A stretch of DNA of 64,000 bases from an uncultured Anaerolineae bacterium (GCA_964390805.1 CAYMKL010000006.1:7895-71894), one strand, 5' to 3'. Shown: positions 8,045 through 64,000, counted from the first letter of the stretch. Numbers and translations: made by a program. The notes: generated by a model from the sequence alone, not told the origin.

Positions 8045-8104
8045 CGGTTTTCTTTTTTGCTCAAACTTATTTCGCCAAATGAAGCAAGCTGATGGAGGAA
8101 ATGG

Positions 8105-8986
8105 ATGGCCGGTGAGAAAGGGATTCGCAGATACGCTTGGATCTGTTTTTTCCTGCTCCCCAGCCTGAGCGGGCTGGTGCTCTTCACTCTCTTGCCCATT
8201 CTGGCCTCACTGGGATTGACCCTCTTCGAGTGGGATCTGCTCACGTCACCCCAGTTCGTCGGCCTGGGCAACTTCCAACGCCTGATCCGCGACCGAAATT
8301 TCTTGACGGCTCTGGGCCACACCTTGCAGTTTATCGCTGGCTACATCCCGCTGGTGATGATCATCTCCCTGGGGGTGGCTGTGATTTTGAATCAGAGAAT
8401 CAGGGGCGTGATCCTCTTTCGCGCTGCCCTTTTTACCCCAGTGGTCTCCGCTTGGGTGGCTGTCGCGCTGCTATGGAAATGGATATTCAACCCCAAGTTC
8501 GGCATAGTCAACTACTTGCTAGGGTTGATAGGCATCCAGGGCCCGGCCTGGCTGTTCGATCCACAGTGGGCCATGCCAGCCGTCATCATCACCAGCGTGT
8601 GGAAGGACATCGGTTTCGTCATGGTGATGTTCCTGGCCGGTCTGCAAGGCATCCCCACAGAGTACTACGAGGCAGCATCCATTGACGGCGCGAGTAGCTG
8701 GCGACGATTTCGCCACATCACGCTCCCCCTGCTCTCTCCGACCACCTTCTTCGCTCTGATCATCTCGCTCATCAACTCCTTCCAGGTTTTCGATCAGGTG
8801 TGGATCATGACTGGCGGGGGGCCAGCCGGGGCCACCAGCGTCCTGGTGGAACAGATTGTCAAGAATGCCTTCAGTTACAGCCGCATGGGCTATGCCGCCA
8901 CCCTGTCGTGGGTGCTCTTCCTGCTGGTCTTCACCGCCACGGCTTTCCAGATGCGCCTGCAGAAACGTTGGGTGACTTATGATTGA
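8105..8986 (+). CDS. ABC sugar transporter permease (MalF/UgpA-like)
   Basis: Six predicted TM helices and a binding-protein-dependent permease signature. RBS GGAGG is upstream. Confidence 0.85.
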   Translation: MAGEKGIRRYAWICFFLLPSLSGLVLFTLLPILASLGLTLFEWDLLTSPQFVGLGNFQRLIRDRNFLTALGHTLQFIAGYIPLVMIISLGVAVILNQRIRGVILFRAALFTPVVSAWVAVALLWKWIFNPKFGIVNYLLGLIGIQGPAWLFDPQWAMPAVIITSVWKDIGFVMVMFLAGLQGIPTEYYEAASIDGASSWRRFRHITLPLLSPTTFFALIISLINSFQVFDQVWIMTGGGPAGATSVLVEQIVKNAFSYSRMGYAATLSWVLFLLVFTATAFQMRLQKRWVTYD

Positions 8987-9845
8987 GACAGCGACCAGGC
9001 CAAGAGCACAATCTGTCACCGGATTGCTCCACTTCGCCCGTCAAGGGTTGTTGTACGCTATCCTTGTTGTCTGCGCGCTGTTCATGATCGTGCCCTTTCT
9101 GTGGATGCTCTCCACATCGCTCAAGGCAGACCAGTACGTGCTGACCATGCCGCCACAGTTCTTCCCGCGTCCGTTGACTCTGAGTAGCTACACCCGACTG
9201 ACTGAGTTATTCCCCATCGGCCGCATGTTCTTCAACAGCCTGTTGGTGGCCGTGCTGACCACCCTGGGCCAGCTTCTGGCCAGCTCTATGGCAGCCTATG
9301 CCTTCGCCCGCATGAGGTTCAGGGGCAGTGGGGCGCTGTTCTTGCTCTACCTGGCAACTCTCATGATCCCTTCCCAAGTAACCATCACGCCGCTTTTCAT
9401 CCTGATGCGCCACCTGGGATGGATCAACACCTATCAGAGCCTGATCCTGCCGGGCGTCTTCAGCGCCTTCGGCACGTTTCTGTTGCGACAGAACTTTCTG
9501 ACCATCCCCCCAGAATTGGAAGAGGCTGCGTTCATTGACGGCGCGTCCCATTGGACCATCTACCGGCACATCATTTTGCCTTTGGGCAAGCCGGCCCTGG
9601 CCACACTGGGGGTGTTCGCTTTCATGGGGTCGTGGAATGCCTTCCTGTGGCCCTTGTTCGTCGTTCGAGACTTGGAGCTAATGACCTTGCCCGTGGGATT
9701 GGCCACCCTGCATGGCCGCTGGCTCACCCAGTGGAATTTGGTCATGGCGGGCACGGTTATTACCGTATTACCAATGCTGGTCGTGTATCTTTTGGCCCAG
9801 CAATACTTCGTCAGGGGCGTTGTCCTGAGCGGTATCAAGGGTTAG
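8979..9845 (+). CDS. ABC sugar transporter permease (MalG/UgpE-like)
   Basis: EAA loop motif (EEAAFIDGASHWTIYRHIILP). Overlaps the upstream permease by 8 nt, consistent with translational coupling. Confidence 0.85.
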   Translation: MIETATRPRAQSVTGLLHFARQGLLYAILVVCALFMIVPFLWMLSTSLKADQYVLTMPPQFFPRPLTLSSYTRLTELFPIGRMFFNSLLVAVLTTLGQLLASSMAAYAFARMRFRGSGALFLLYLATLMIPSQVTITPLFILMRHLGWINTYQSLILPGVFSAFGTFLLRQNFLTIPPELEEAAFIDGASHWTIYRHIILPLGKPALATLGVFAFMGSWNAFLWPLFVVRDLELMTLPVGLATLHGRWLTQWNLVMAGTVITVLPMLVVYLLAQQYFVRGVVLSGIKG

Positions 9846-52780: not shown

Positions 52781-53017
52781 ATTCAGTACATCGCAATTGC
52801 GAAGATGAGCTGGCTCCAATGCCCGCGTTTCGGCGGCCCTTCGGCCGTAAGCGGAGCGACGCTCAGGACAGGCGTGGGAGCCGCCTCTGCTTATAGCTGG
52901 CGAGCTAGTAGATTATAGCACAACGAGCCGGGGTAGCAAACTCCAGGAAGTCGGCTTGCCTGTTCCTTGACAGGTAAGCCGACTTTGGCTTTCTGGCAGG
53001 CCAGGCGGAACATCTCT

Positions 53018-53046
53018 TTGACAAAATCCCGGCTACGTGCTATCAT
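53018..53046 (+). promoter_or_regulatory. Candidate sigma70-type promoter (TTGACA-17 nt-TATCAT) for the mttB-family operon
   Basis: TTGACA at 53018-53023 and TATCAT at 53041-53046, about 45 nt upstream of the RBS and ATG at 53093. An upstream hairpin at 52955-52992 may terminate plsY. Confidence 0.45.
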
Positions 53047-53092
53047 TACGCCGCTCATCAAGGCTTGTCCAAAAAACGCAAAGGAGAGAAGA

Positions 53093-54550
53093 ATGTTCAG
53101 GCCCAAGCTAGAACTACTCGACAGAGAAACCATTGAGCGCATCCTGGCGGAAGCCCACGAGTTGCTGTGGGACCCCGGCGTGCGCATCCATAGCGACGAG
53201 GCCCTCAAGCTGGTCGCTGATGCTGGAGCCACTGTTGATTTCGACAGCAAAGTGGCTCGGATCCCAGCCGAACTAGTTGACAAGGCTGTGGAAACGGTGC
53301 CCTCCTCGTTTCACCTCCACGATTTCGAGGGGAACCCTGTAGTACACTATGGCGACGATGACGTGCAGTTTGACCCAGGCTCGGCAGCCATCGAATTTTT
53401 GGATTATGGAGCGACCCAGTCGCGCACACCAATCACGGCCGACTTTGTCGCTTATATCAAGTTGGCTGACATGCTGCCAGAGCTAGACGCGGTCAGCACG
53501 GCTCTGGTCTGCTCGGACGTGCCGGAGAGCATGGCTGATCTCTATCGCCTCTACCTGGTGCTCAGGTACGCCAGGAAGCCCGTCATCACCGGCGCCTTTG
53601 CCGTTGAGACTTTGGCAATCATGAAAGACCTGCTCGTCGCTGTGGTCGGCAGCGACGAGGCGCTGGCCGCCAAGCCCATCGCGGTGTTCGACGTCTGCCC
53701 CTCGCCCCCCCTGCTGTGGAGCGAGATCACCTGCCAGAACATGATTGACTGCGCCCGCGCGGGTATCCCAGCCGAGCTGGTCTCCATGCCCCTGGCCGGG
53801 GCGACGGGCCCCGCTACCCTGGTTGGCTCGGTGGTGCAGCACGCCGCCGAGTGCCTGAGCGGCATCACCATTCACCAACTGGCCAAAGCCGGTTCTCCCA
53901 TCGTTTGGGGTGGCTCACCTGCCGCCTTCGATATGCGCACGGGGACACCCCCCATGGGGGCTATCGAGACCATGATGATAGATTGTGCTTATGCTCAGGT
54001 CGGCAAGTACCTGGGACTGCCCACCCACGCCTACATGGGCATGAGCGACGCCAAGATCGTAGATGCGCAGGCCGGCTTCGAGTCCGGCATCGGCAACATC
54101 ATGGCAGCCCTGGCCGGGGTGAACATGGTTTCTGGGGCCGGCATGATGGACTTCGAAAGCTGTTTCAGCCTGGAGAAGCTGGTGATTGATAACGAGCTCA
54201 TCGGCATGGCACGCCGCCTGGTGCGGGGCATTGACGCCTCAGAGGATCCCCTGGCCACCGTCATCATGCGCCAGGTCGGCCATGCGGGCAACTTCCTGGC
54301 CACCAAACACACCCGCCGCTGGTTCAAGCGAGAGCAGTTTATCCCCTCCCCCGTCATTGACCGCGACTACCGTCAGGCCTGGGAGAACAAGGGTGCTAAG
54401 GACATCGTGCAGCGAGCGCATGAACGAGTTGAGCAGTTGGTAGCAGCCTACCAACCCAAGCCCCTGCCCAAAGGGGTGGAGCAGGAGTTGGTGGCTATCA
54501 CCCTGCGGACAGCCAAAGCCCAGGGGCTAGAGAGATTACCGCCACTGTGA
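53093..54550 (+). CDS. MttB-superfamily (trimethylamine methyltransferase family) non-pyrrolysine methyltransferase, paralog 1
   Basis: The N-terminus MFRPKLELLDRETIERILAEAHELLWDPGVRIH is a typical MttB family start. TIM-barrel length, with no in-frame amber codon. Confidence 0.85.
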   Translation: MFRPKLELLDRETIERILAEAHELLWDPGVRIHSDEALKLVADAGATVDFDSKVARIPAELVDKAVETVPSSFHLHDFEGNPVVHYGDDDVQFDPGSAAIEFLDYGATQSRTPITADFVAYIKLADMLPELDAVSTALVCSDVPESMADLYRLYLVLRYARKPVITGAFAVETLAIMKDLLVAVVGSDEALAAKPIAVFDVCPSPPLLWSEITCQNMIDCARAGIPAELVSMPLAGATGPATLVGSVVQHAAECLSGITIHQLAKAGSPIVWGGSPAAFDMRTGTPPMGAIETMMIDCAYAQVGKYLGLPTHAYMGMSDAKIVDAQAGFESGIGNIMAALAGVNMVSGAGMMDFESCFSLEKLVIDNELIGMARRLVRGIDASEDPLATVIMRQVGHAGNFLATKHTRRWFKREQFIPSPVIDRDYRQAWENKGAKDIVQRAHERVEQLVAAYQPKPLPKGVEQELVAITLRTAKAQGLERLPPL

Positions 54551-54578
54551 TCTATTGCGGGAAACGAGTAACGAGGGG

Positions 54579-56018
54579 ATGAGTCAAATTGAACGCCCCA
54601 AACTGCGCCTGGAGGTGCTGAGCCAGGACGAGGTGCGACGCATCCACCAGGCCAGCCTGGAGGTCATCAAGACGGTTGGGGTGCGCTTTCCTTCGGACTG
54701 GGCCCTTGATATTCTGGAGGAGACGGGAGCGATAGTGGATCGAGAAAGCCAGATCGCCCGCCTCCCCAGCCAGCTCATTGTCGAGGCTTTGACCAACGCG
54801 CCGCCATCGTATGTGCTCTGCGCCCGCGATCCCGCCCTGGATCTGCCCCTGGACGGTGAGCACTCCTATCTGTCCACCGACGGCTGTGGCGTGGAGGTCA
54901 TTGACATCGAGACGAGAGAGCGACGGCGCTCGACCAGGCAGGACGTGGCCGAGTCAGCACTGGTGGCCGATTACCTGCCTCAGATCGCTTTCTACTGGCC
55001 TATAGTAGCCGCCCAGGACTGTCCCCCGCAAACGCGCTCTTTGCACGAACTGGAGGCCGCCTGGAACAATACCACCAAGCACGTCCAGACCGAGTGCGTC
55101 ATCACGGCCAGGGAAGCCGAAGCGGCCATTGAGATGGCTGCGGCCATCGTCGGCGGGCGCGACGAGCTGAGAAAACGCCCCATCCTCTCCATCATGCAGT
55201 GCACCATCAGCCCCCTAGGGCAGGATGGGGGCAGCCTGGAGGCCGCTCTGGTTGCTGCCGCAGCGGGCCTACCAGTGGGCTTCATGACCATGGCCAGTTG
55301 CTGCTCCACCGGGCCAGCCACGCTGGCCGGCAACCTGGTGGTGGGCAACGCCGAGGTGATCGCCGCCTCCGCCCTCATTGAGCTGGCCTACCCAGGCACG
55401 CCCATTTTCTACGCCGCCGCTCAGACGGCCATGGACCTCCGCACGGGGGCCTATACCGGTGGAGGGCCGGAGGACTACCTCTTCGGAGCAGCCACCAACC
55501 AACTGGCTGACTTCTACAGGATCCCCCTCTCCATGGGTGCCTTCGCCAGCGGCGCAAAAGAGCCCGACTGGCAAGCGGCGCTGGACAACGCCTTTGCCGG
55601 CCTGATGCCCGTCCTCAGCGGAGCCGACATGCTGACCGGTGCAGGCCTGCTCTATGGCTCGCGCATCCTCTCCTACGAGCAATTGCTCATGGATTGTGAG
55701 ATCTACGACCTTATCCAGGCCACAGCACGGGGCATCGAAGTAAGCGACGAGACCCTGGCTTTGGAGGTCATTAAGTCCGTGGGTGTGGGTGGACACTACC
55801 TGGACCAGACACACACACTGAAGCACATGAAGAAGCGATGGGTGCCAAGCCTGGTGGATCGCCGCTCCTATAGAGCCTGGGAGAAAGATGACCGGCGAGG
55901 GGCGAGGGAGTGGGCCCACGAGAAAGCAAGGTGGATCCTGGCTAATCACCGCCCAGAGCTGTTGGAACCCAGGCTGCAGGAAGAACTATCCAAGATCATT
56001 GCTATCATGGAGAAGTAG
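54579..56018 (+). CDS. MttB-superfamily methyltransferase, paralog 2
   Basis: ERPKLRLEVLSQDEVRRIHQASLEVIKTVGVRF. Lies 28 nt downstream of paralog 1. Confidence 0.85.
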   Translation: MSQIERPKLRLEVLSQDEVRRIHQASLEVIKTVGVRFPSDWALDILEETGAIVDRESQIARLPSQLIVEALTNAPPSYVLCARDPALDLPLDGEHSYLSTDGCGVEVIDIETRERRRSTRQDVAESALVADYLPQIAFYWPIVAAQDCPPQTRSLHELEAAWNNTTKHVQTECVITAREAEAAIEMAAAIVGGRDELRKRPILSIMQCTISPLGQDGGSLEAALVAAAAGLPVGFMTMASCCSTGPATLAGNLVVGNAEVIAASALIELAYPGTPIFYAAAQTAMDLRTGAYTGGGPEDYLFGAATNQLADFYRIPLSMGAFASGAKEPDWQAALDNAFAGLMPVLSGADMLTGAGLLYGSRILSYEQLLMDCEIYDLIQATARGIEVSDETLALEVIKSVGVGGHYLDQTHTLKHMKKRWVPSLVDRRSYRAWEKDDRRGAREWAHEKARWILANHRPELLEPRLQEELSKIIAIMEK

Positions 56019-56023
56019 GGAGT

Positions 56024-56138
56024 CTTTGGGGATTTACGTGAATAGCAGGCCGGAGTCCTCAACTTGTTGAGGTTTGCCGCACCGCAACCTCAACAAGTTG
56101 AGGACTCCGACACCATGACCCCGCGAAATCCCAAAGAG
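56024..56138 (+). repeat. Large nested palindrome: a 21-bp perfect inner stem (GGAGTCCTCAACTTGTTGAGG/CCTCAACAAGTTGAGGACTCC) within outer arms CTTTGGGGATTT/AAATCCCAAAGAG
   Basis: Read directly from the sequence at 56052-56072 and 56088-56108 (inner stem) and 56024-56035 and 56126-56138 (outer arms). Confidence 0.8.
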
Positions 56139-56161
56139 CCTGAAGAGCAAGGAGCTAGACC

Positions 56162-57625
56162 ATGCGACCCAAGCTGGAACTCCTGGAACATGAGCTAGTG
56201 GAACGCATCGTGGGCGAGGCCTACGAGCTGTTGTGGGACCCCGGTGTGCTGGTGCACCGAGAGCGCGCTCTGACAATCCTGGCCGAGGGCGGGGCCACGG
56301 TGGACTTCGAGAAGAAGACCGCCAAGATACCCCAGCATAAGATTGACGAGGCCCTCAAGACTGCCCCGGCCAGCGTGGATGTCTACGACCTGAAGGGAGA
56401 GCTGCGCCTGCGCCTGGGGCAGGACAACACGTATTTCTACCCCGGCGCTACCGCTCTGCAGATCATAGACCCCGTCACCGACGAGTACCGTCCTCCCGTC
56501 ACCGAAGACCTGGTGCGCTTCATCCAGATGGTGGAGGGCTTGCCCCAGATTGACGCCCAGGCTGGCTCGCTGCTGTGCGCCGATGTGCCCAAGATGGTTT
56601 CGGATAGTTATCGTTATTACCTGATGCTGCTCTATGGCACGAAACCCCTCTGCGGCGGGGCCTTCAGCATCGAGGGCTGGTATCCCATGAAGGACCTGCT
56701 GGCGGCCTACTTCGGCAGCGAGGAGGCCATCGCCGCCAAGCCCGTCAATACTATGGCCATCTGTCCATCGCCGCCCCTTCTTTGGAGCGACATCACTTGT
56801 CAGAACCTCATGGACTGCGCCAAATGGGGCCTGCCGGCGGTGCTCATCTCCATGCCCCTGTCTGGAGCCACCGCCCCAGTGACCATCGCGGGTACGGTGG
56901 TGCAACACGCTGCCGAATCCCTGAGCGGCGTAGTCATCCACCAGTTAGTGAACCCGGGTGCACCCATCATCTACGGCAGCTCGCCAGCTATGTTTGACAT
57001 GCGTGAGGGCACCACGCCCATGGGATCCATCGAAACTGTCATGATCAACTGTGCCAACGCTCAGGTAGGCAAATACCTGAACCTGCCCACTCACGGCTAC
57101 GTGGGCTTGAGCGACGCCAAGATCGTGGACGCGCAGGCCGGCCTGGAGTCGGCGATGGGGTCGGTTCTAGGGGCCCTGGCTGGAATCAACCTCATCTGCG
57201 GGGCCGGCATGTCCGACTTCGAGAGCGGGTCGAGCTTCGAGAAGGTGGTCATAGACGCCGAGGTGATCGGCATGGCCAAACGACTGCTCGCTGGAGTCGA
57301 AGCCCGTGAGGAGAGCCTGGCTACGACCCTGATGCGGGAAGTGGGACACCAGGGCAATTTCCTGGCCACGGAGCACACTCGTAGATGGTTCAGAGAGGAG
57401 CAGTACATTCCCTCAGCGGTCATTGACCGCGCCTCCCAAAGCATTTGGGAGAATCGCGGGAACAAGAACGCCGTGCAGCGCGCCCGCGAACGGGCCGTGG
57501 CCCTGATCGCCGAGTACCAGCCCCCTGAAGTGCCCGCTGAGGTCCGTAAGGAGTTGAAGGCCGTTATGACTAGGGCTGCGAAGCAGTATGGTGTGGATGA
57601 ATTGCCGCCCCTGCCAGAGTTGTAG
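56162..57625 (+). CDS. MttB-superfamily methyltransferase, paralog 3
   Basis: MRPKLELLEHELVERIVGEAYELLWDPGVLVH. RBS AAGGAG. Confidence 0.85.
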   Translation: MRPKLELLEHELVERIVGEAYELLWDPGVLVHRERALTILAEGGATVDFEKKTAKIPQHKIDEALKTAPASVDVYDLKGELRLRLGQDNTYFYPGATALQIIDPVTDEYRPPVTEDLVRFIQMVEGLPQIDAQAGSLLCADVPKMVSDSYRYYLMLLYGTKPLCGGAFSIEGWYPMKDLLAAYFGSEEAIAAKPVNTMAICPSPPLLWSDITCQNLMDCAKWGLPAVLISMPLSGATAPVTIAGTVVQHAAESLSGVVIHQLVNPGAPIIYGSSPAMFDMREGTTPMGSIETVMINCANAQVGKYLNLPTHGYVGLSDAKIVDAQAGLESAMGSVLGALAGINLICGAGMSDFESGSSFEKVVIDAEVIGMAKRLLAGVEAREESLATTLMREVGHQGNFLATEHTRRWFREEQYIPSAVIDRASQSIWENRGNKNAVQRARERAVALIAEYQPPEVPAEVRKELKAVMTRAAKQYGVDELPPLPEL

Positions 57626-57670: not shown

Positions 57671-57702
57671 ACAAAGAGGAGTCAACGCTGACTCCTCTTT
57701 GT
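57671..57702. terminator. Bidirectional terminator hairpin between convergent mttB3 and the ABC ATPase gene
   Basis: ACAAAGAGGAGTCA-acgc-TGACTCCTCTTTGT: a 14-bp perfect stem flanked by A-rich and T-rich runs. Confidence 0.7.
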
Positions 57703-57733: not shown

Positions 57734-58483
57734 CTACAAAATATGTCGCAGGAAATCCCTCGTGCGCGGGTCCTGGGGGTTATCGAACATCTCCTGTGGC
57801 GTCCCCTCCTCAACCCACACTCCCTCATCCATGAACATAACGCGATGGGCGACCTCACGGGCGAAGCCCATCTCATGGGTGACCACGATCATGGTCATTC
57901 CCTCCCGCGCCAGGCGCTTCATCACGTCTAGCACCTCGCCGATCAGCTCGGGGTCCAAGGCTGAGGTTGGCTCGTCGAAGAGCATGATCTTGGGCTCCAT
58001 GGCATAGGCGCGGGCGATGGCCACCCGCTGCTGCTGCCCACCGGAGAGGCGCGCGGGGTACTCGTCGCGCTTGTCCATCAGACCCACCCAGCCCAGGTGC
58101 CGTTCGCCGATTTCGGTTGCTTCCTCTTTGGACATCCCCTTGACCGTCACTGGCCCCGCAATGACATTCCCCAGGGCTGTCATGTGGGGGAAGAGGTTGA
58201 AGTGCTGAAAGACCATGCCGGTCTTGGCCCGGATCTGCTGGATGTGAACGCGGTGCTCGCGACTGGGCTCCCCCGCTGGGATCACCACCCCGTCAATCTC
58301 GATGGTGCCCGCCGTTGGCTCCTCCAGGAAATTCAAACAGCGCAAAAACGTGCTCTTCCCCGACCCGGAGCGGCCGATGACCACTAACACCTCGCCCACT
58401 TCTACATCTAGATCAAAGCCTCTCAGAACGTAGAGCCCGCCGAAGCATTTCTCCAGCTTCCGAACTTTGATGATAGGCTCCAT
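57734..58483 (-). CDS. Polar amino acid ABC transporter ATP-binding protein (GlnQ/HisP/ArtP-like)
   Basis: Walker [10 protein letters not shown], signature [14 protein letters not shown], Walker [13 protein letters not shown]. Confidence 0.85.
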
Positions 58484-58489
58484 ATCACC

Positions 58490-59338
58490 TCATTTCCTCT
58501 CGCCCCGACTCATGTGGGTCTCCAGGCGGCCTTGCAATGCCTGCAACACGATACACATGATCCAGTAGATAATCGCGGCCACTGTCAGTGTTTCCAGGGA
58601 GCGGAAGTAGCGGCGACCCATTTTTGTGGCCCGGTAGGTCAACTCCCAGACCCCCATCACCATGACCAGAGACGAATCCTTGACCATGGCCACGAAGTCA
58701 TTGCCGATGGGGGGGATGACGACGCGGAGGGCCTGGGGCAAGATGACGCGGCGTCTTGTCTGGTTTGGCGTCATACCCACAGAATAGGCAGCCTCAGTCT
58801 GGCCTTTGCTGATGGATTGGATGCCGGCCCGGAAGGTCTCTGTCATGTAGGCGCCATAGCACACGCCCAGGGCCAGGATGCCAGCCGGTATGGCAGGCAA
58901 TGTCAGGAGCTTCTGCGCCCCAGTCAAGCCCAAGTCTTCCAACTGTTGCCCGATCTGCGGTAGACCAAGATACCACATATAGACCTGAACCAGCAAGGGC
59001 GTGCCTCGGACAAAGGAGACGTAGAAGCCAGAAATGCCGTTGGCGATGGGATTCTTGGAAAGCCGCCCCAGGGCCCCTAAGAGCGCCAAAATGATGGCCA
59101 CGATGATGGCGGCCACCGACACCAACAACGTGTACTGAATCCCCTGGACAATGAAGCCCAGCCTGTCGTACATGAAGTTGATGTCGAACTTGAGAAGCTT
59201 GACCCCCACTCCAAGGGCGATGAAGATGCCGACCCATACCACGCCCAACTGGATGACGAAATTCCGCACCTTGCCCCGCTGGGCGGCCATATTGCGCTCT
59301 GCCTCAGCCGACGGTTGAGATAATGCAACAGTACTCAT
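58490..59338 (-). CDS. Polar amino acid ABC transporter permease (HisM/GlnP-like)
   Basis: TM pattern and the conserved permease core region (SFVRGTPLLVQVYMWYLGLP). Confidence 0.8.
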   Translation of the reverse strand: MSTVALSQPSAEAERNMAAQRGKVRNFVIQLGVVWVGIFIALGVGVKLLKFDINFMYDRLGFIVQGIQYTLLVSVAAIIVAIILALLGALGRLSKNPIANGISGFYVSFVRGTPLLVQVYMWYLGLPQIGQQLEDLGLTGAQKLLTLPAIPAGILALGVCYGAYMTETFRAGIQSISKGQTEAAYSVGMTPNQTRRRVILPQALRVVIPPIGNDFVAMVKDSSLVMVMGVWELTYRATKMGRRYFRSLETLTVAAIIYWIMCIVLQALQGRLETHMSRGERK

Positions 59339-59379
59339 TGGATCACCTCCATATCAGGTTCGCAGGTCCAGGGCAGGTG

Positions 59380-60303
59380 CTATAGGCGCAGCCGCGGGTC
59401 GAGCGCGTCACGCAAACCATCGCCCAGCAGGTTGAAGCCTAGCACTGTGATCATGATCGCCAAGCCGGGGAAGAACACCAGGTGCGGCGCACTGAAGACC
59501 TGGTTCCGCTCGCTGGCTAACATGGATCCCCATTCAGGATCAGGGGGTTGCGCGCCCATCCCGATAAACGAAAGCGCAGCCGTCTCCAGAATGGCGCTGC
59601 CAATACCCAATGTGCCCTGCACGATCATCGGAGAGATGGCATTGGGCAAGACGTGCAAGAAGAGAATTCGCAATGGACTAGCCCCAATTGACCGGGCCGC
59701 CGAAACATATTCCTCCTCTTTGACCGACAGAACACTGGAACGGATAACTCGGGCAAACGCTGGAATATTGATGATAGCGATGGCCATCATCGCATTAGTC
59801 AAACCCGGCCCCAGAACAGCAACAATGGCAATGGCCAGCAGTAGAAAGGGAAAGGCCAGCACCACGTCAAGGACACGCATGATAACGTCTGATACCCATC
59901 CTCCGACATAGCCAGCTACAGCCCCCAGGATTGTCCCCACAATTATGGCGGCGCCAATGGTGACAAATCCAATACGTAGGGAGATACGGGTGCCATAAAT
60001 GATGCGGCTAAACTCATCCCGCACATTGCCATCAATGCCCATCAGGTGCTGGGGTTGGTCTTCAGGGCAACCCAGCAGGTGAATGCACGGATCTGCCCGT
60101 CTCTTAACCGATTCTACTCCGATTAGAACTTGAATCGGATCATAGGGTGCAATGATGGGGGCGAAAATCGCCACCAGGGTCAAGAACCCCAGGAGAATCA
60201 TCCCGGCGATTCCTGATCGTTGTCGAAAGAGGCGTCGAAGGGCCACCAACCACAAATTCTCAGAGCGTGAGTATTTTCGGAAATCTGTAGATAGAGTCTG
60301 CAT
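59380..60303 (-). CDS. Oligopeptide/dipeptide-type ABC permease (DppC/OppC-like)
   Basis: N-terminus typical of OppC (LWLVALRRLFRQRSGIAGMILLGFLTLVAIFAPIIAPYDP) and the conserved permease core region. Confidence 0.8.
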   Translation of the reverse strand: MQTLSTDFRKYSRSENLWLVALRRLFRQRSGIAGMILLGFLTLVAIFAPIIAPYDPIQVLIGVESVKRRADPCIHLLGCPEDQPQHLMGIDGNVRDEFSRIIYGTRISLRIGFVTIGAAIIVGTILGAVAGYVGGWVSDVIMRVLDVVLAFPFLLLAIAIVAVLGPGLTNAMMAIAIINIPAFARVIRSSVLSVKEEEYVSAARSIGASPLRILFLHVLPNAISPMIVQGTLGIGSAILETAALSFIGMGAQPPDPEWGSMLASERNQVFSAPHLVFFPGLAIMITVLGFNLLGDGLRDALDPRLRL

Positions 60304-60407
60304 TAATCGTTTCTCGAAAGCTCGGCAAAGTCTCCTGACCGCAGCCGCCTTTGGGCTCGGTCAGAGACCCTCGCCCAACGGAGTAGGAGCTTCTTTACTG
60401 TCTGCTT

Positions 60408-61487
60408 TCAGCTCATTTTAATGCGGGGATCGAGGAAAGCATACGATAGGTCTACCACCAGGTTTATGACGATATACCCTAACGCAACTACAACCGTGAA
60501 ACCCTGAATAATGGGAAAGTCGCGTGCAGTGATTGCTTCATATAGGCTTCGCCCTACCCCCGCCAGGCTGAAAATCGTCTCTGTGAGAATCGCCCCACTG
60601 AAGACCACACCCAGTTGAAGCCCCACTATCGTCACAATTGGTAGAAGCGCATTGCGGAAACCATGCCTCATCACTACCCATCGTTCAGACAGCCCCTTGG
60701 CCCGGGCCGTACGCATGTAGTCTAACCCCAATACCTGCAACATGCTGGAGCGAGTCATACGCGCGATAATTGCCATGGGAATAGTGCTGAGCGCCGCCGC
60801 AGGCAAGATCAGGTGCGTAATCGCGTCCTTTAGAACCTCCCAATTGAGGGTGATCAGGGAGTTAAAAACGTAGAAGTTGCCAACGAATTCCAACAACTTG
60901 GCGATCAACGCACCTTCTGTCAGTTCCCAACCATATACCTCATAGAAAGGCGTCGCTGCCAATCCCGCCGACAATCGCCCCGAGGGCGGCAACTGTAAGG
61001 GCGTACCTTTTAACACCAAAGCAAAGACATAGGCCAACATCAAACCCAGCCAGAATACGGGCATCGAAACCCCGACATTTGCCCATACCATCGTACCTAC
61101 ATCAACGGCAGAATTATGGCGCAGGGCCGAAACAATGCCAAGGGGTATGCCGACTAAACAAGCGATGAGCAATCCGGCAAAACCCAGTTCGATCGTCATT
61201 GGCAGGCGCTCGACCAGGATTTGGGTAATAGGACGACGAAACCGAATCGAGTTACCGAAATCGCCATGCGCTAACTCATTCATATAGATACCAAACTGAA
61301 CCAGAATGGGCTTGTCAAACCCCCTTTCGCGATTGAAACGCTCACAAACTTCATCGGTGGCTTTTTCTCCCAGCATCGCTTTGCAAGGGTCACCAGGAAT
61401 CGCCCGGGCTAGAGCAAAAGTGACCAGCAAAACACCAAACAAAACAGGCAATGAGGCCACAATGCGTCGAATGGCATATTTGATCAT
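60408..61487 (-). CDS. Oligopeptide/dipeptide-type ABC permease (DppB/OppB-like)
   Basis: MIKYAIRRIVASLPVLFGVLLVTFALARAIPGDP is the classic DppB N-terminus. Confidence 0.85.
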   Translation of the reverse strand: MIKYAIRRIVASLPVLFGVLLVTFALARAIPGDPCKAMLGEKATDEVCERFNRERGFDKPILVQFGIYMNELAHGDFGNSIRFRRPITQILVERLPMTIELGFAGLLIACLVGIPLGIVSALRHNSAVDVGTMVWANVGVSMPVFWLGLMLAYVFALVLKGTPLQLPPSGRLSAGLAATPFYEVYGWELTEGALIAKLLEFVGNFYVFNSLITLNWEVLKDAITHLILPAAALSTIPMAIIARMTRSSMLQVLGLDYMRTARAKGLSERWVVMRHGFRNALLPIVTIVGLQLGVVFSGAILTETIFSLAGVGRSLYEAITARDFPIIQGFTVVVALGYIVINLVVDLSYAFLDPRIKMS

Positions 61488-61600
61488 AGGGTTCCCCCAA
61501 AGTATAGAAAAACTGTTATCAAGAATAAGTAATGGGTTGAGTTCTGTAGGGGCAGTACCTTACACCTGCTGTTGAGGGACGACTGCGTTCCCAGGCAATG

Positions 61601-61650
61601 GTGCGGGGTGGCATATTGCCAATCATTGAGGCAGATAAGCCACCCCGCAC
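61601..61650 (-). other. Intercistronic hairpin (12-bp GC-rich stem GTGCGGGGTGGC/GCCACCCCGCAC) between the SBP gene and dppB-like gene
   Basis: Read directly from the sequence. Lies about 50 nt after the SBP stop. Confidence 0.5.
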
Positions 61651-61699
61651 TGTTGTTAGCACACGCTCAAGTTAAGCTAAGCACTGGCAACAGAATGCC

Positions 61700-64000
61700 T
61701 TATTCTTCAGCATTCATCAAGGCATTCCACAGGTATGTGAAGTACTGGAAGGTACCTGTGTTGCCGACGTGATACGGGCTAGCCGCGTTTATGCCTGCTT
61801 CCCAGGACGCAAGCACGTCTTCGGCGCCGAAGTCTGAGCCGTCGTGGAACTTGACACCTTCACGCAGATAGCAGGTCCACACGGTGGAGTCCGCGTTCGG
61901 CTCACACGACGTGGCCAGCGCAGGGATGGTGTCGCCGGAGTCAAGCTTGTAGTTCAGGAACGGCTCAACGATCTGCTCACAGATCGACAACGACTCGCCA
62001 TCGGACTCGTCGCCACAGTATATGCTGATGGGCTCTGCGTTCTGCATCCAGATAACGGTGTCTTTGCCCGGATCAAGCTTGGCGAGGACGGGCGCACCAA
62101 ACGGACGAGCATGCGCAGTCATGTCAGCCCGCGCTGCTTGAGCTGAAGCGCCGTTAGCAATCGGCACCATCGGTACCAGCTCGCGGATGGCGTTGTTAGC
62201 CTCGACGTAGAGTTCCACGGCCGCTGCCGGGTCGCCGATCTGAGCGCCTGCTTCCAGTGGTTCGTAGATCTCCGGGTGTGGATCGCCAAACTGCTGGGTG
62301 TTCCTGCCAAAGTGGAAGTCCAGGAAGTTGGTCACGTGCGGATAGTCCGCTCCCCAACCCAGGAGGTAGAAGCCATCCAACTGGCAAGTCGTTGACAAGT
62401 CAATGAACTGCCCAGACTCCATCACGATCACTTCGGCGTCAATGTTCAGGTTTTCCTTCAACTGGGCCTGGAATTCAACTGACACCAAGCCAGGCTCTGG
62501 CAAGTAGCCGCGGAACACGTCGCGGTAGGTAATCGTGGTCTCAAAGCCATCGGGGAATCCCGCCTCGGCCAGCAACGCGCGGGCAGCTTCGGGGTCAAAG
62601 TCGTACCATGGATCGCCGGCGCAGCCATTGGGCAGACTGCACGGTGTAAAGTGCGTGGGTACGACAGAGCCTTCGGGGTAGAAGTTGTCTACGATGCGCT
62701 GGCGGTCAATCCCCATAGCGATGGCCTGGCGAACTTTGAGGTTGCCATAGGGCTCCTTCAAGTTGCACATCGCCAGGTACAGGATGTTGGGGTTGGGGAC
62801 TGGCAGAAGCTGCAAGTTGGGATCGCTCTTGACGGTCTCGAAGTCATCCGGGCTAACATTGGTGATCTGGTCCACATTGCCGGACTGCAACTCCAGCAAG
62901 CGGGCCGCGCCTTCCGTCGCCCAGCGGATGACCGCGGTCTCGGCGATGGCCGGCTCACCCCAGTAGTCGTCGAAGCGCTTGAGAACAATGCTCTCCCCGC
63001 GGTTCCAAGACTCCAGCATGTAGGGGCCGGTGCCAATGGAATTCTCCAGGATTTCGCCTGAGGCAGCGGTGGCTTCGATGTGTTCTTTGGGTTGGACGCT
63101 AAAGGGGATAAAGGCCACCTTGGCCAGGAAAGCTGGGTCAGGTGAGCACATTGTGAACTGAACAGTGTAGCGGTCAAGAGCTGCGATTTCCTTGATCTTG
63201 CCGCCATAGTCACAATCGGGAGCCACGATGGACGCCAACTCATCCGCAGTCTCCTTGGTGATGTCCTCACCGAACCACTCCATGGATAGCGCGGTCAAGG
63301 TACCATCGCTGTGCATGTCCGCCAGGATGTCGTTGAGCTTGGCCAGCAGCCTTGCACTGGGCCCACGCGACTTGTCCAGCGCGAAGGATAGGGGCTCGTA
63401 GAAGGCCGGAGCGCCCAGCAGCTTGATGGGCACACCCTCATCAATGGCGCCTTGCAGGGTGGGAATGGCCGACATCACAGCGTCCAGTCGGGCGCCGTCG
63501 CCCAAGCGCAGGTCTTCGATGGCATTGGCGTCAGTGGGATAGGTCCTCAGCTCTCCAGCCTCCCAGGCGACGTAGTTAACCTCATACCCCGCGATGGGAA
63601 TCTCGACATCCTTGTTCATGAAGTACTCGTAGGTGCACTCGCCGCACAGGCCGATGACTTTGCCTGCCAGGTCGTCCACCGATGTGAAGGTATTGTCCTC
63701 GTGCACAGCAAAGCCAGCCGGCGTGTAGTAGTAGGGATCAGTGAACCACAGCACCTCCCCCCGTGCCACCGTAGGGGTCATGCTGCCGATGCTGATGTCC
63801 CAGCGAGCACCCCAACTGCCAGCGGTGATGAGGTCCCAATCGGGAGTCACGAGCTCCAACTCGACGCCCAGCCGGGCAGCGACTTCTTTGTAGACGTCAA
63901 TGTCAAAGCCAACCATCTCCCCATCGTCGTCCAGGAAGCTCTGGGGAGCGTAGTTGGCATCGCTGGCGCCAACCAATACGCCGGCCGCCAGTATTTCGTC
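61700..64000 (-). CDS. Two-domain ABC substrate-binding protein: N-terminal SBP family 3 (polar amino acid type) fused to C-terminal SBP family 5 (peptide/opine type). Partial; the N-terminus lies beyond the window end.
   Basis: An SBP_bac_3-like region of about 250 aa (GFDIDVYKEVAARLGVELELV...LTALSMEWFGEDI) is followed by an SBP_bac_5-like region of about 500 aa. The ORF is open to the window edge. Confidence 0.75.
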   Translation of the reverse strand, partial: DEILAAGVLVGASDANYAPQSFLDDDGEMVGFDIDVYKEVAARLGVELELVTPDWDLITAGSWGARWDISIGSMTPTVARGEVLWFTDPYYYTPAGFAVHEDNTFTSVDDLAGKVIGLCGECTYEYFMNKDVEIPIAGYEVNYVAWEAGELRTYPTDANAIEDLRLGDGARLDAVMSAIPTLQGAIDEGVPIKLLGAPAFYEPLSFALDKSRGPSARLLAKLNDILADMHSDGTLTALSMEWFGEDITKETADELASIVAPDCDYGGKIKEIAALDRYTVQFTMCSPDPAFLAKVAFIPFSVQPKEHIEATAASGEILENSIGTGPYMLESWNRGESIVLKRFDDYWGEPAIAETAVIRWATEGAARLLELQSGNVDQITNVSPDDFETVKSDPNLQLLPVPNPNILYLAMCNLKEPYGNLKVRQAIAMGIDRQRIVDNFYPEGSVVPTHFTPCSLPNGCAGDPWYDFDPEAARALLAEAGFPDGFETTITYRDVFRGYLPEPGLVSVEFQAQLKENLNIDAEVIVMESGQFIDLSTTCQLDGFYLLGWGADYPHVTNFLDFHFGRNTQQFGDPHPEIYEPLEAGAQIGDPAAAVELYVEANNAIRELVPMVPIANGASAQAARADMTAHARPFGAPVLAKLDPGKDTVIWMQNAEPISIYCGDESDGESLSICEQIVEPFLNYKLDSGDTIPALATSCEPNADSTVWTCYLREGVKFHDGSDFGAEDVLASWEAGINAASPYHVGNTGTFQYFTYLWNALMNAEE

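Follow-up and report, generated by a model that had tools for sequence, protein, structure and literature searches.

The 64,000-nt stretch of DNA analysed here, called the window throughout, comes from an uncultured Anaerolineae bacterium (GCA_964390805.1, CAYMKL010000006.1:7895-71894) and ends in an ATP-binding cassette (ABC) importer locus. From position 57734 to the window end, the minus strand carries five consecutive open reading frames (ORFs) in the order binding protein, DppB-like permease, DppC-like permease, permease of the polar amino acid transport (PAAT) family and ATPase, with intergenic gaps of 212, 104, 41 and 6 nt (Table 1). This order and placement agree in full with the initial annotation, which was made from the sequence alone. 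The same is true of its single ATPase: in a blastp comparison of all window ORFs, the only ABC ATPase is of the polar-amino-acid type and has no oligo_HPY domain. Comparison with related loci suggests that two separate importers, one PAAT and one DppA-like, probably lie here with their receptors fused into one polypeptide, in which the DppA-like module is circularly permuted.

Table 1. Features of the importer locus; positions are counted from the first nucleotide of the window.
Feature	Position	Strand	Basis
Fused binding-protein gene, 3' 2.3 kb	61700..64000	-	Frame open to window edge; Pfam SBP_bac_3 + SBP_bac_5
SBP_3 receptor domain, 'type A'	63251..64000	-	Pfam PF00497, 102.9 bits; PDB relatives; co-variation
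Circularly permuted DppA-like SBP_5 module (P0001 aa 356-869)	61703..63244	-	Swapped-order alignment; AlphaFold2; Foldseek
Segment equivalent to mature E. coli DppA 124-490, with invariant Arg and Asp	62114..63196	-	130.4 bits, independent E-value (i-E) 6.4e-37
C-terminal segment equivalent to N-terminal residues 26-116 of mature DppA	61736..62002	-	35.5 bits, i-E 3.1e-8
GC-rich hairpin in the 212-nt spacer between binding-protein gene and dppB-like gene	61601..61650	-	Folding z-score -3.26
DppB-like permease, 359 aa	60408..61487	-	Pfam BPD_transp_1_N + BPD_transp_1; alignment with E. coli DppB
DppC-like permease, 307 aa	59380..60303	-	Pfam OppC_N + BPD_transp_1; 99% identical in syntenic relative
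PAAT-family permease, 282 aa	58490..59338	-	TIGR01726; TcyL/EhuD/GlnP-like
PAAT-family ATPase, 249 aa, GlnQ/TcyN/HisP-like	57734..58483	-	Pfam + NCBIfam
Perfect 14-bp palindromic terminator-like hairpin between ATPase stop and convergent MttB gene	57671..57702		Terminator scan

The visible part of the binding protein comprises 766 residues, with no upstream stop within the window. A Logan contig of identical sequence (L001) and the database entry for protein P0001 supplied its missing N-terminus. The full-length protein has 869 aa and consists of a signal peptide, a LysM-like domain, an SBP_3 domain and an SBP_5 domain; the first 103 aa, containing the signal peptide and the LysM-like domain, fall past the window end. 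A signal peptide beyond that end, which the initial annotation had proposed to look for, is thus present. Pfam places SBP_bac_3 (102.9 bits, cut-off 26.4, E 1.5e-29) at aa 12-245 of the fragment and SBP_bac_5 (260.1 bits, E 4.6e-77) in the same reading frame. This bears out the suggested SBP_3-SBP_5 fusion and removes the alternative of a single SBP family across the whole protein. The binding protein carries no BPD_transp domain, the permeases being separate genes.

The unusual length of the ORF is the one point in favour of an artefact, in which a frameshift or mis-assembly would have joined two neighbouring binding-protein genes. Against this, two independent Logan assemblies (L001, L002) and the NCBI protein P0001 all show this sequence unchanged; many other assemblies contain fused homologues, dozens of which share a conserved short linker; and the SBP_3 and SBP_5 domains are both intact. 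An artefact has a negligible probability and was rejected.

The signal peptide of P0001 has no lipobox (MLKRTFTNLILVFAMLLTMLGVASA) and is followed by a domain of ~60 aa with the LysM-like motif YTVKLGDNLWTLAEKY...HPGWKFIIPG. The LysM profile PF01476 reaches 20.4 bits against a cut-off of 20.9 and covers profile positions 1-16 only. For aa 32-92, AlphaFold2 (AF2) predicts a strand-helix-helix-strand arrangement at a predicted local distance difference test score (pLDDT) of 80-93. Most relatives begin with a lipobox (L-x-A-C) and then a Pro/Thr/Glu-rich linker. A non-lipobox signal peptide with a LysM-like domain is found at the N-termini of P0001, P0004, P0005 and P0007, as well as in the unfused P0043. 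In the sub-lineage of P0001, anchoring has probably switched from membrane lipid to the cell wall, judging by these N-termini.

Relative to DppA, the SBP_5 module is a circular permutant. When the fragment is compared with the PDB by phmmer, residues 269-629 align with E. coli DppA 124-490 and residues 667-755 with DppA 26-116 (scores in Table 1). It is this reversal, with the DppA 124-490 match preceding the 26-116 match, that identifies the permutation. The 38 residues between the two pieces correspond approximately to the C-terminus of DppA joined to its N-terminus. The last 150 residues of the protein match 37 distinct solved SBP_5 sequences, always in their N-terminal portion (~3-184), and none of these 37 matchable sequences has the permuted order. 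The module thus departs from the canonical N-to-C order of the Dpp/Opp binding-protein fold.

Modelled alone by AF2, the SBP_5 module forms a single body (pLDDT 87.6, predicted template-modelling score (pTM) 0.83), in which the C-terminal permuted piece has a pLDDT of 89-97. The best Foldseek matches to this model are GbpA, DppA and HbpA, with a probability of 1.00 and template-modelling (TM) scores of 0.65-0.68. About 390 of 514 columns are aligned, as expected of a sequential aligner on a permuted relative; being sequential, Foldseek cannot itself place the C-terminal piece at the position of the DppA N-terminus. Unfused relatives, such as P0078 (562 aa), start and end at the same points as the module, which indicates that the whole family is permuted. 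Elsewhere in the family, two proteins, P0003 (1050 aa; L011 9836-13153) and P0002 (1098 aa), contain two permuted SBP_5 modules in tandem, and across the tandem junction Pfam reads a canonical-order SBP_bac_5 (profile 2-365). By its domain order, such a tandem would be the duplication intermediate expected on the way to, or back from, a circular permutation.

The two Dpp-type permeases retain the features of their E. coli counterparts. Residues 1-357 of the DppB-like protein align with E. coli DppB 1-336 (E 5.4e-75). In the scoop loop, E41-K42 is in register with E. coli E41-R42, and the EAA region, with RNALLP, is near-identical to that of E. coli DppB; a periplasmic loop carries an insertion of ~20-25 residues. 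The BPD_transp_1_N and OppC_N domains are those of a DppB/OppB plus DppC/OppC-type pair, and the receptor is a family-5 (cluster C) binding protein, as in Dpp/Opp systems (TC 3.A.1.5). The DppA equivalog model NF043070 gives 142.8 bits, below its cut-off of 1005.

The remaining parts are those of a PAAT importer (TC 3.A.1.3), namely an SBP_3 receptor, a HisM/GlnP-type permease and an ATPase of ~250 aa. The permease scores 80.7 bits on TIGR01726, the HEQRo 3-transmembrane signature (cut-off 42.2), and 85.4 bits on BPD_transp_1. Its best named match is the cystine permease, at 187.5 bits for TcyL (cut-off 300); it has an additional N-terminal segment of ~50 aa and presumably acts as a homodimer. 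In the ATPase, Pfam finds ABC_tran only, with no oligo_HPY. It scores 337 bits on TcyN (cut-off 406), 318 on GlnQ and 299 on EhuA, with HisP also among the best models. None of the named-substrate systems considered (TcyJLN, GlnHPQ, EhuABCD, HisJQMP) can be assigned, all NCBIfam equivalog scores being below cut-off. On the SBP_3 part, the cystine-binding equivalog NF008426 gives 81 bits (cut-off 312), and the match to EhuB is only 25 bits.

In E. coli DppA, R383 and D436 (precursor numbering) clamp the ligand (PMC12136057). Their aligned counterparts in P0001 are R600 and D655, both invariant in family alignments of 14 and 66 sequences. Conservation of the clamp, together with the in-register E41-K42 of DppB, makes a dipeptide-like ligand likely for the SBP_5 module. 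The PDB relatives of the SBP_3 domain are Gln-, Arg- and Lys-binding proteins; its likeness to these and to cystine-binding proteins is at the family level only.

In Dpp systems, the permeases are encoded with two oligo_HPY ATPases, DppD and DppF. Here, blastp of every ORF finds no DppD/F-like gene in the 64-kb window. A syntenic relative (L003-L005), whose DppB is 96% identical and which is flanked by the same MttB genes, serves as a stand-in for the region past the window end. Upstream of its operon, dppDF is likewise absent, and a complete Liv-type ABC system with LivG and LivF occupies this position. The initial annotation had named a dppD/dppF pair immediately upstream as the finding that would reduce the locus to two ordinary adjacent systems. 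As the syntenic relative has no such pair, the locus is not just two complete adjacent operons.

This absence is common in the wider family. Among 68 loci with enough flanking sequence, DppD and DppF follow DppC in 38 and are missing in 30. Twenty-six of these 30 are neither the window nor L003-L005, and 24 of the 26 have no ABC ATPase at all after DppC, most of them with unfused binding proteins. The lack of DppDF in cis is, on this basis, independent of the PAAT genes. L003-L005 and L025 have the five-gene layout as well, again without DppDF, and in L074 the fusion gene, DppB, DppC and a PAAT permease are present with no ATPase after them.

Some further ATPase relationships were observed. 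DppD of L010 (6487-7461) is 80% identical to DppD of L093 (8001-8987), which belongs to a different Dpp operon with DppB and DppC only 33-37% identical to those of the window. It is only 51% identical to DppD of L008 (16042-17070), also of the permuted type. By these identities, ATPases seem to move between Dpp systems. At 8093-9845 on the plus strand, the window also holds a CUT1-like sugar ABC permease pair with no ATPase match nearby in the window; this importer apparently relies on an ATPase encoded elsewhere.

Comparison of the window with L003 shows which parts of the locus belong together. DppB, DppC and the permuted SBP_5 module are 96.4%, 98.7% and 86.9% identical between the two, and the flanking MttB genes are 92% and 89% identical. 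The corresponding values are 31% for SBP_3, 42% for the PAAT permease and 59% for the PAAT ATPase. About 3.9 kb of conserved DNA lies between the swapped parts, that is, between SBP_3 on one side and the PAAT permease and ATPase on the other. Across ten loci, SBP_3 domains fall into two types, A and B. Domains of type A share 44-94% identity with one another and those of type B 63-86%, against 27-36% for pairs of unlike type. The same division is seen in the PAAT permease and ATPase, but not in the permuted SBP_5, DppB and DppC, which follow another tree. The joint swap and the type-wise split indicate that the ATPase shares its evolutionary history with the SBP_3 domain and the PAAT permease rather than with DppBC.

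In their EAA (coupling-helix) regions, DppB and DppC of the window agree with those of L003 at 58/58 and 57/58 positions, despite the ATPase swap. The EAA regions of the window match the consensus of DppDF-linked loci, and no group-specific EAA signatures of DppB or DppC were found between loci with and without DppDF. Cryo-electron microscopy has shown that E. coli DppB binds DppD specifically (PMC12136057). With an EAA region so like that of E. coli DppB, this specificity argues for a DppD/F-type ATPase as the partner of the window permeases.

More elaborate relatives show the same correspondence of receptors and permeases. Beside the triple fusions SBP_8-SBP_3-permuted SBP_5 (L008, L013) lie genes for CUT1-like permeases, for DppBCDF and for a PAAT permease and ATPase, so that every receptor module is matched by a permease of its own and the two kinds of ATPase stand side by side. 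In L086 (6912-15778), an unfused SBP_3, a PAAT permease and a PAAT ATPase lie directly upstream of an unfused permuted SBP_5-DppB-DppC-DppD-DppF series on the same strand. From its gene order, this looks like the arrangement before fusion.

The best interpretation, to which we assign a probability of roughly 70%, is that the locus encodes two separate importers, one PAAT and one DppA-like, with fused receptors and with DppDF acting in trans. The first would be a complete PAAT importer, made up of the SBP_3 domain, a homodimer of the 282-aa permease and a homodimer of the 249-aa ATPase. The second would be a DppA-like dipeptide importer, made up of the permuted SBP_5 module and the DppB-like and DppC-like permeases. 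Its ATPases would be of the DppD/F type and supplied from elsewhere in the genome, an assumption made by analogy with many relatives. The fusion protein would be exported through its N-terminal signal peptide and, in the window lineage, would probably be held at the cell wall by the LysM-like domain. Each receptor domain would then hand its ligand to its own permease, and the fusion would chiefly allow the tether and the expression of the peptide receptor to serve the amino-acid receptor as well. The transport mechanism itself is probably ordinary. Of the initial proposal that two transporters are interleaved and share components, the interleaving is favoured, with an ATPase that co-varies with SBP_3 and the PAAT permease, but not the sharing, as the DppBC coupling regions are unchanged.

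Several points weigh against this interpretation. No DppD/F gene was located for the window organism, for which the window and the syntenic relative were examined, nor was an orphan dppDF pair found: a protein search from the DppD of L010 gave only pairs within Dpp operons (L092-L094). In the fusion loci L014 and L009, the permease of the partner receptor is not adjacent, so the rule that receptor and permease lie in cis is not universal. Structure prediction of the fusion, as suggested initially, was confident for the SBP_5 module alone but not for the relative placement of the domains, the full-length AF2 model having a pLDDT of 71 and a pTM of 0.43. Tethering is a putative reason for the fusion, and the substrates are deduced from conserved residues and weak family matches only.

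The permuted module is widespread. It is ~70% identical to hundreds of Chloroflexota proteins of 520-630 aa, and a genome scan yielded 543 relatives in species-representative genomes. The best 80 of these 543 are all collinear with the permuted order, placing the family in at least 80 species genomes. Most of the best 80 come from Anaerolineae, Ardenticatenaceae or Caldilineales, among them an unfused member from a cultured organism, Bellilinea caldifistulae GOMI-1 (L062), and some from Acidimicrobiia, Devosia, Rhodospirillales and Kiloniellales. Most family members are unfused. In fusions, the module is always C-terminal, and its N-terminal partners are SBP_3, SBP_8 plus SBP_3, Bmp, Peripla_BP_4, Peripla_BP_6, a protein kinase or a second copy of the module. 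While the initial call of an SBP_5 domain was correct, it had missed the permutation, the spread over at least 80 genomes and the recurrent C-terminal partnering. Nothing relevant to permuted DppA/OppA proteins or SBP_3-SBP_5 fusions was found in the searchable literature. As far as that literature and solved structures show, this widespread permuted DppA-like family is undescribed, and its members of 800-1300 aa are now annotated just as "peptide/nickel substrate-binding protein".

Individual members of the family add further detail. Dpp operons with permuted SBP_5 occur in Devosia (L067, L075), Rhodospirillales (L063), Kiloniellales (L047) and Acidimicrobiia (L020, L046, L051, L060, L069, L087). 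These operons of Proteobacteria and Actinomycetota are 60-70% identical to those of Chloroflexota, which points to transfer of the whole operon across phyla. In P0089 (983 aa), a Ser/Thr protein kinase domain lies N-terminal to the permuted module; by its domain make-up, this protein suggests a further role for the module in extracellular sensing. In L092 (1-9984), a Bmp-SBP_5 fusion is accompanied by two permease genes with a GH43_C2-domain gene between them and then by four ORFs for oligo_HPY-type ATPases. The PAAT permease varies as well: in the triple-fusion loci L008 (18165-20447) and L013 (16772-18976), its N-terminus bears a fused WD40 beta-propeller of ~450 aa, and in L074 it has 451 aa, the N-terminal half being without assignment.

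A promoter and terminator scan found no terminator-like sites in the three internal spacers of the window operon. The stable hairpin in the 212-nt spacer, with the stem GUGCGGGGUGGC...GCCACCCCGCAC, has no U-tract and may act as an mRNA stabiliser or attenuator. A hairpin after the receptor gene is the classic arrangement for producing receptor in excess of permease, which may be its function here. The operon likely ends at the palindromic hairpin downstream of the ATPase gene, which is the one strong terminator-like element. By its position, common to this gene and the convergent MttB gene, that hairpin apparently terminates transcription in both directions. Beyond it, on the plus strand (52937-57625), lie three consecutive MttB-family paralogues, 26-56% mutually identical and convergent on the operon. 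In L003, an additional class-I methyltransferase gene lies between the MttB genes; the window has none.

Other explanations of the locus make different use of the same observations. One is a composite importer, as the initial annotation suggested, in which the single GlnQ-type ATPase powers DppBC as well as the PAAT permease, giving one self-sufficient machine of dual specificity. It would account for the sole ATPase gene in the operon and in the whole window and for the recurrence of this layout without DppDF in L003-L005 and L025, and the sharing of ATPases is known in other ABC families, for example through MsiK. The swap speaks against it, however, as the ATPase falls to 59% identity while the coupling regions of DppB and DppC hardly change, and in its EAA region DppB closely resembles E. 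coli DppB, which pairs specifically with DppD. Moreover, 24 loci without DppDF have no ATPase of any kind after DppC, L074 has a PAAT permease with no ATPase following, and L008 and L013 keep DppDF beside the PAAT ATPase. A composite importer is accordingly very unlikely. About as unlikely is a docking role, in which the permuted SBP_5 and DppBC of lineages without DppDF are a scaffold that positions the fused receptor and not primarily a transporter. The unusual conservation of the module (60-70% identity across phyla), its fusion to at least five other receptor families and a kinase, and the many loci without ATPases would fit such a role. But DppDF is retained in cis at 38 loci, the majority of family members carry no fusion, and the EAA motifs, scoop loop and clamping Arg and Asp are invariant, loci without DppDF included.

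A broader proposal is rather unlikely. Here, the permuted module and DppBC would be a platform for grafted receptors (SBP_3, SBP_8, Bmp, Peripla_BP_4/6) in Chloroflexota, forming coupled multi-transporter assemblies. The permutation would free an N-terminus for grafting and tethering, and the ATPase of the grafted system could also drive DppBC where DppDF is absent in cis. Also unlikely is the proposal, raised in the initial annotation, that the locus is a dedicated supplier of a methylated amine or betaine-type substrate to the adjacent MttB-family methyltransferases. The three MttB paralogues do adjoin the operon, in a neighbourhood kept in L003-L005; an MttB gene also lies beside an unrelated Dpp operon in L093; and the PAAT permease and ATPase score moderately on the ectoine Ehu models, if below cut-offs. 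Yet the MttB genes are convergent and behind a terminator, and they are 89-92% identical between loci whose SBP_3 domains, at 31%, have been swapped. The other window-type loci and 80 genome loci have no MttB gene within 10 kb, and the SBP_3 match to EhuB is the 25 bits given above. A dedicated link to MttB enzymes thus finds little support, and two importers with fused receptors remain the preferred explanation.

The specificity of an ABC importer is determined by its binding protein, and such proteins are in wide use as scaffolds for biosensors. In this family, receptors of different SBP families can be strung on one chain, and the matching permease sets are gathered in one place. This single-chain, multi-receptor layout amounts to a rule of design for capturing nutrients where receptors must be tethered. 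For annotation, the lack of DppDF in an operon is no reason to call it defective or to assume that it uses the nearest ATPase. As far as could be found, what is new is a permuted DppA-like family that recurs as the C-terminal partner in multi-receptor fusions with matching permeases co-located; the transport mechanism is probably not new.

The closest reference for the peptide half is E. coli DppABCDF, for which structures are available (PDB 8z1v-8z1z; PMC12136057). The window locus shares with it an end-to-end DppB, the position of the scoop loop, the EAA region, OppC_N in DppC, a DppA-like fold and the clamping Arg and Asp. It differs in that the binding module is permuted and fused behind another receptor, DppD and DppF are missing from the operon, and a DppB loop carries an insertion. 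For the amino-acid half, E. coli GlnHPQ and the cystine system TcyJLN are PAAT importers with one permease and one ATPase. Like these (compared through NCBIfam models NF007027, NF007028, NF008428 and NF011680), the window has an SBP_3 receptor and one gene each for the permease and for an ATPase of ~250 aa, these two genes being 6 nt apart. Unlike them, its receptor is a domain of a larger protein, two Dpp permease genes lie between receptor and permease, the permease has ~50 extra N-terminal aa, and equivalog scores are below cut-offs.

Fusion of receptors has a precedent in GlnPQ of Lactococcus lactis, where two tandem SBP_3-type domains of different specificities are fused to the permease and serve one translocator (PMC8025302). 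Both systems carry more than one receptor domain on one polypeptide, with different specificities, in a cell without an outer membrane. In the window, the domains represent two unlike SBP families, each with a permease set to match, and are joined together rather than to a permease. Permutation has a precedent in TpMglB-2 (Tp0684) of Treponema pallidum, a 'Cluster Bc' protein in which a sugar-binding protein is circularly permuted with its fold and ligand binding kept (PMC4990184). Permuted Cluster Bc proteins are mainly tethered by a lipid anchor, and a link between permutation and tethering was suggested by the authors (PMC4990184). This is the only natural precedent of a permuted binding protein found in the searchable literature, and the principle of natural circular permutation in an ABC binding protein is all that is shared: the window module belongs to cluster C (DppA/OppA-type) and not to the cluster B sugar-binding proteins, its breakpoint is another, and no fusions are reported for TpMglB-2.

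For the ATPase supply, the corresponding precedent is MsiK/MsmK, an ATPase encoded elsewhere that serves CUT1 sugar importers. As in such systems, permease and receptor genes are found in the window without an ATPase gene for them in the operon. The precedent differs in that it concerns sugar systems, with sharing inside one ATPase family; the putative sharing here would concern Dpp-type systems of Chloroflexota.

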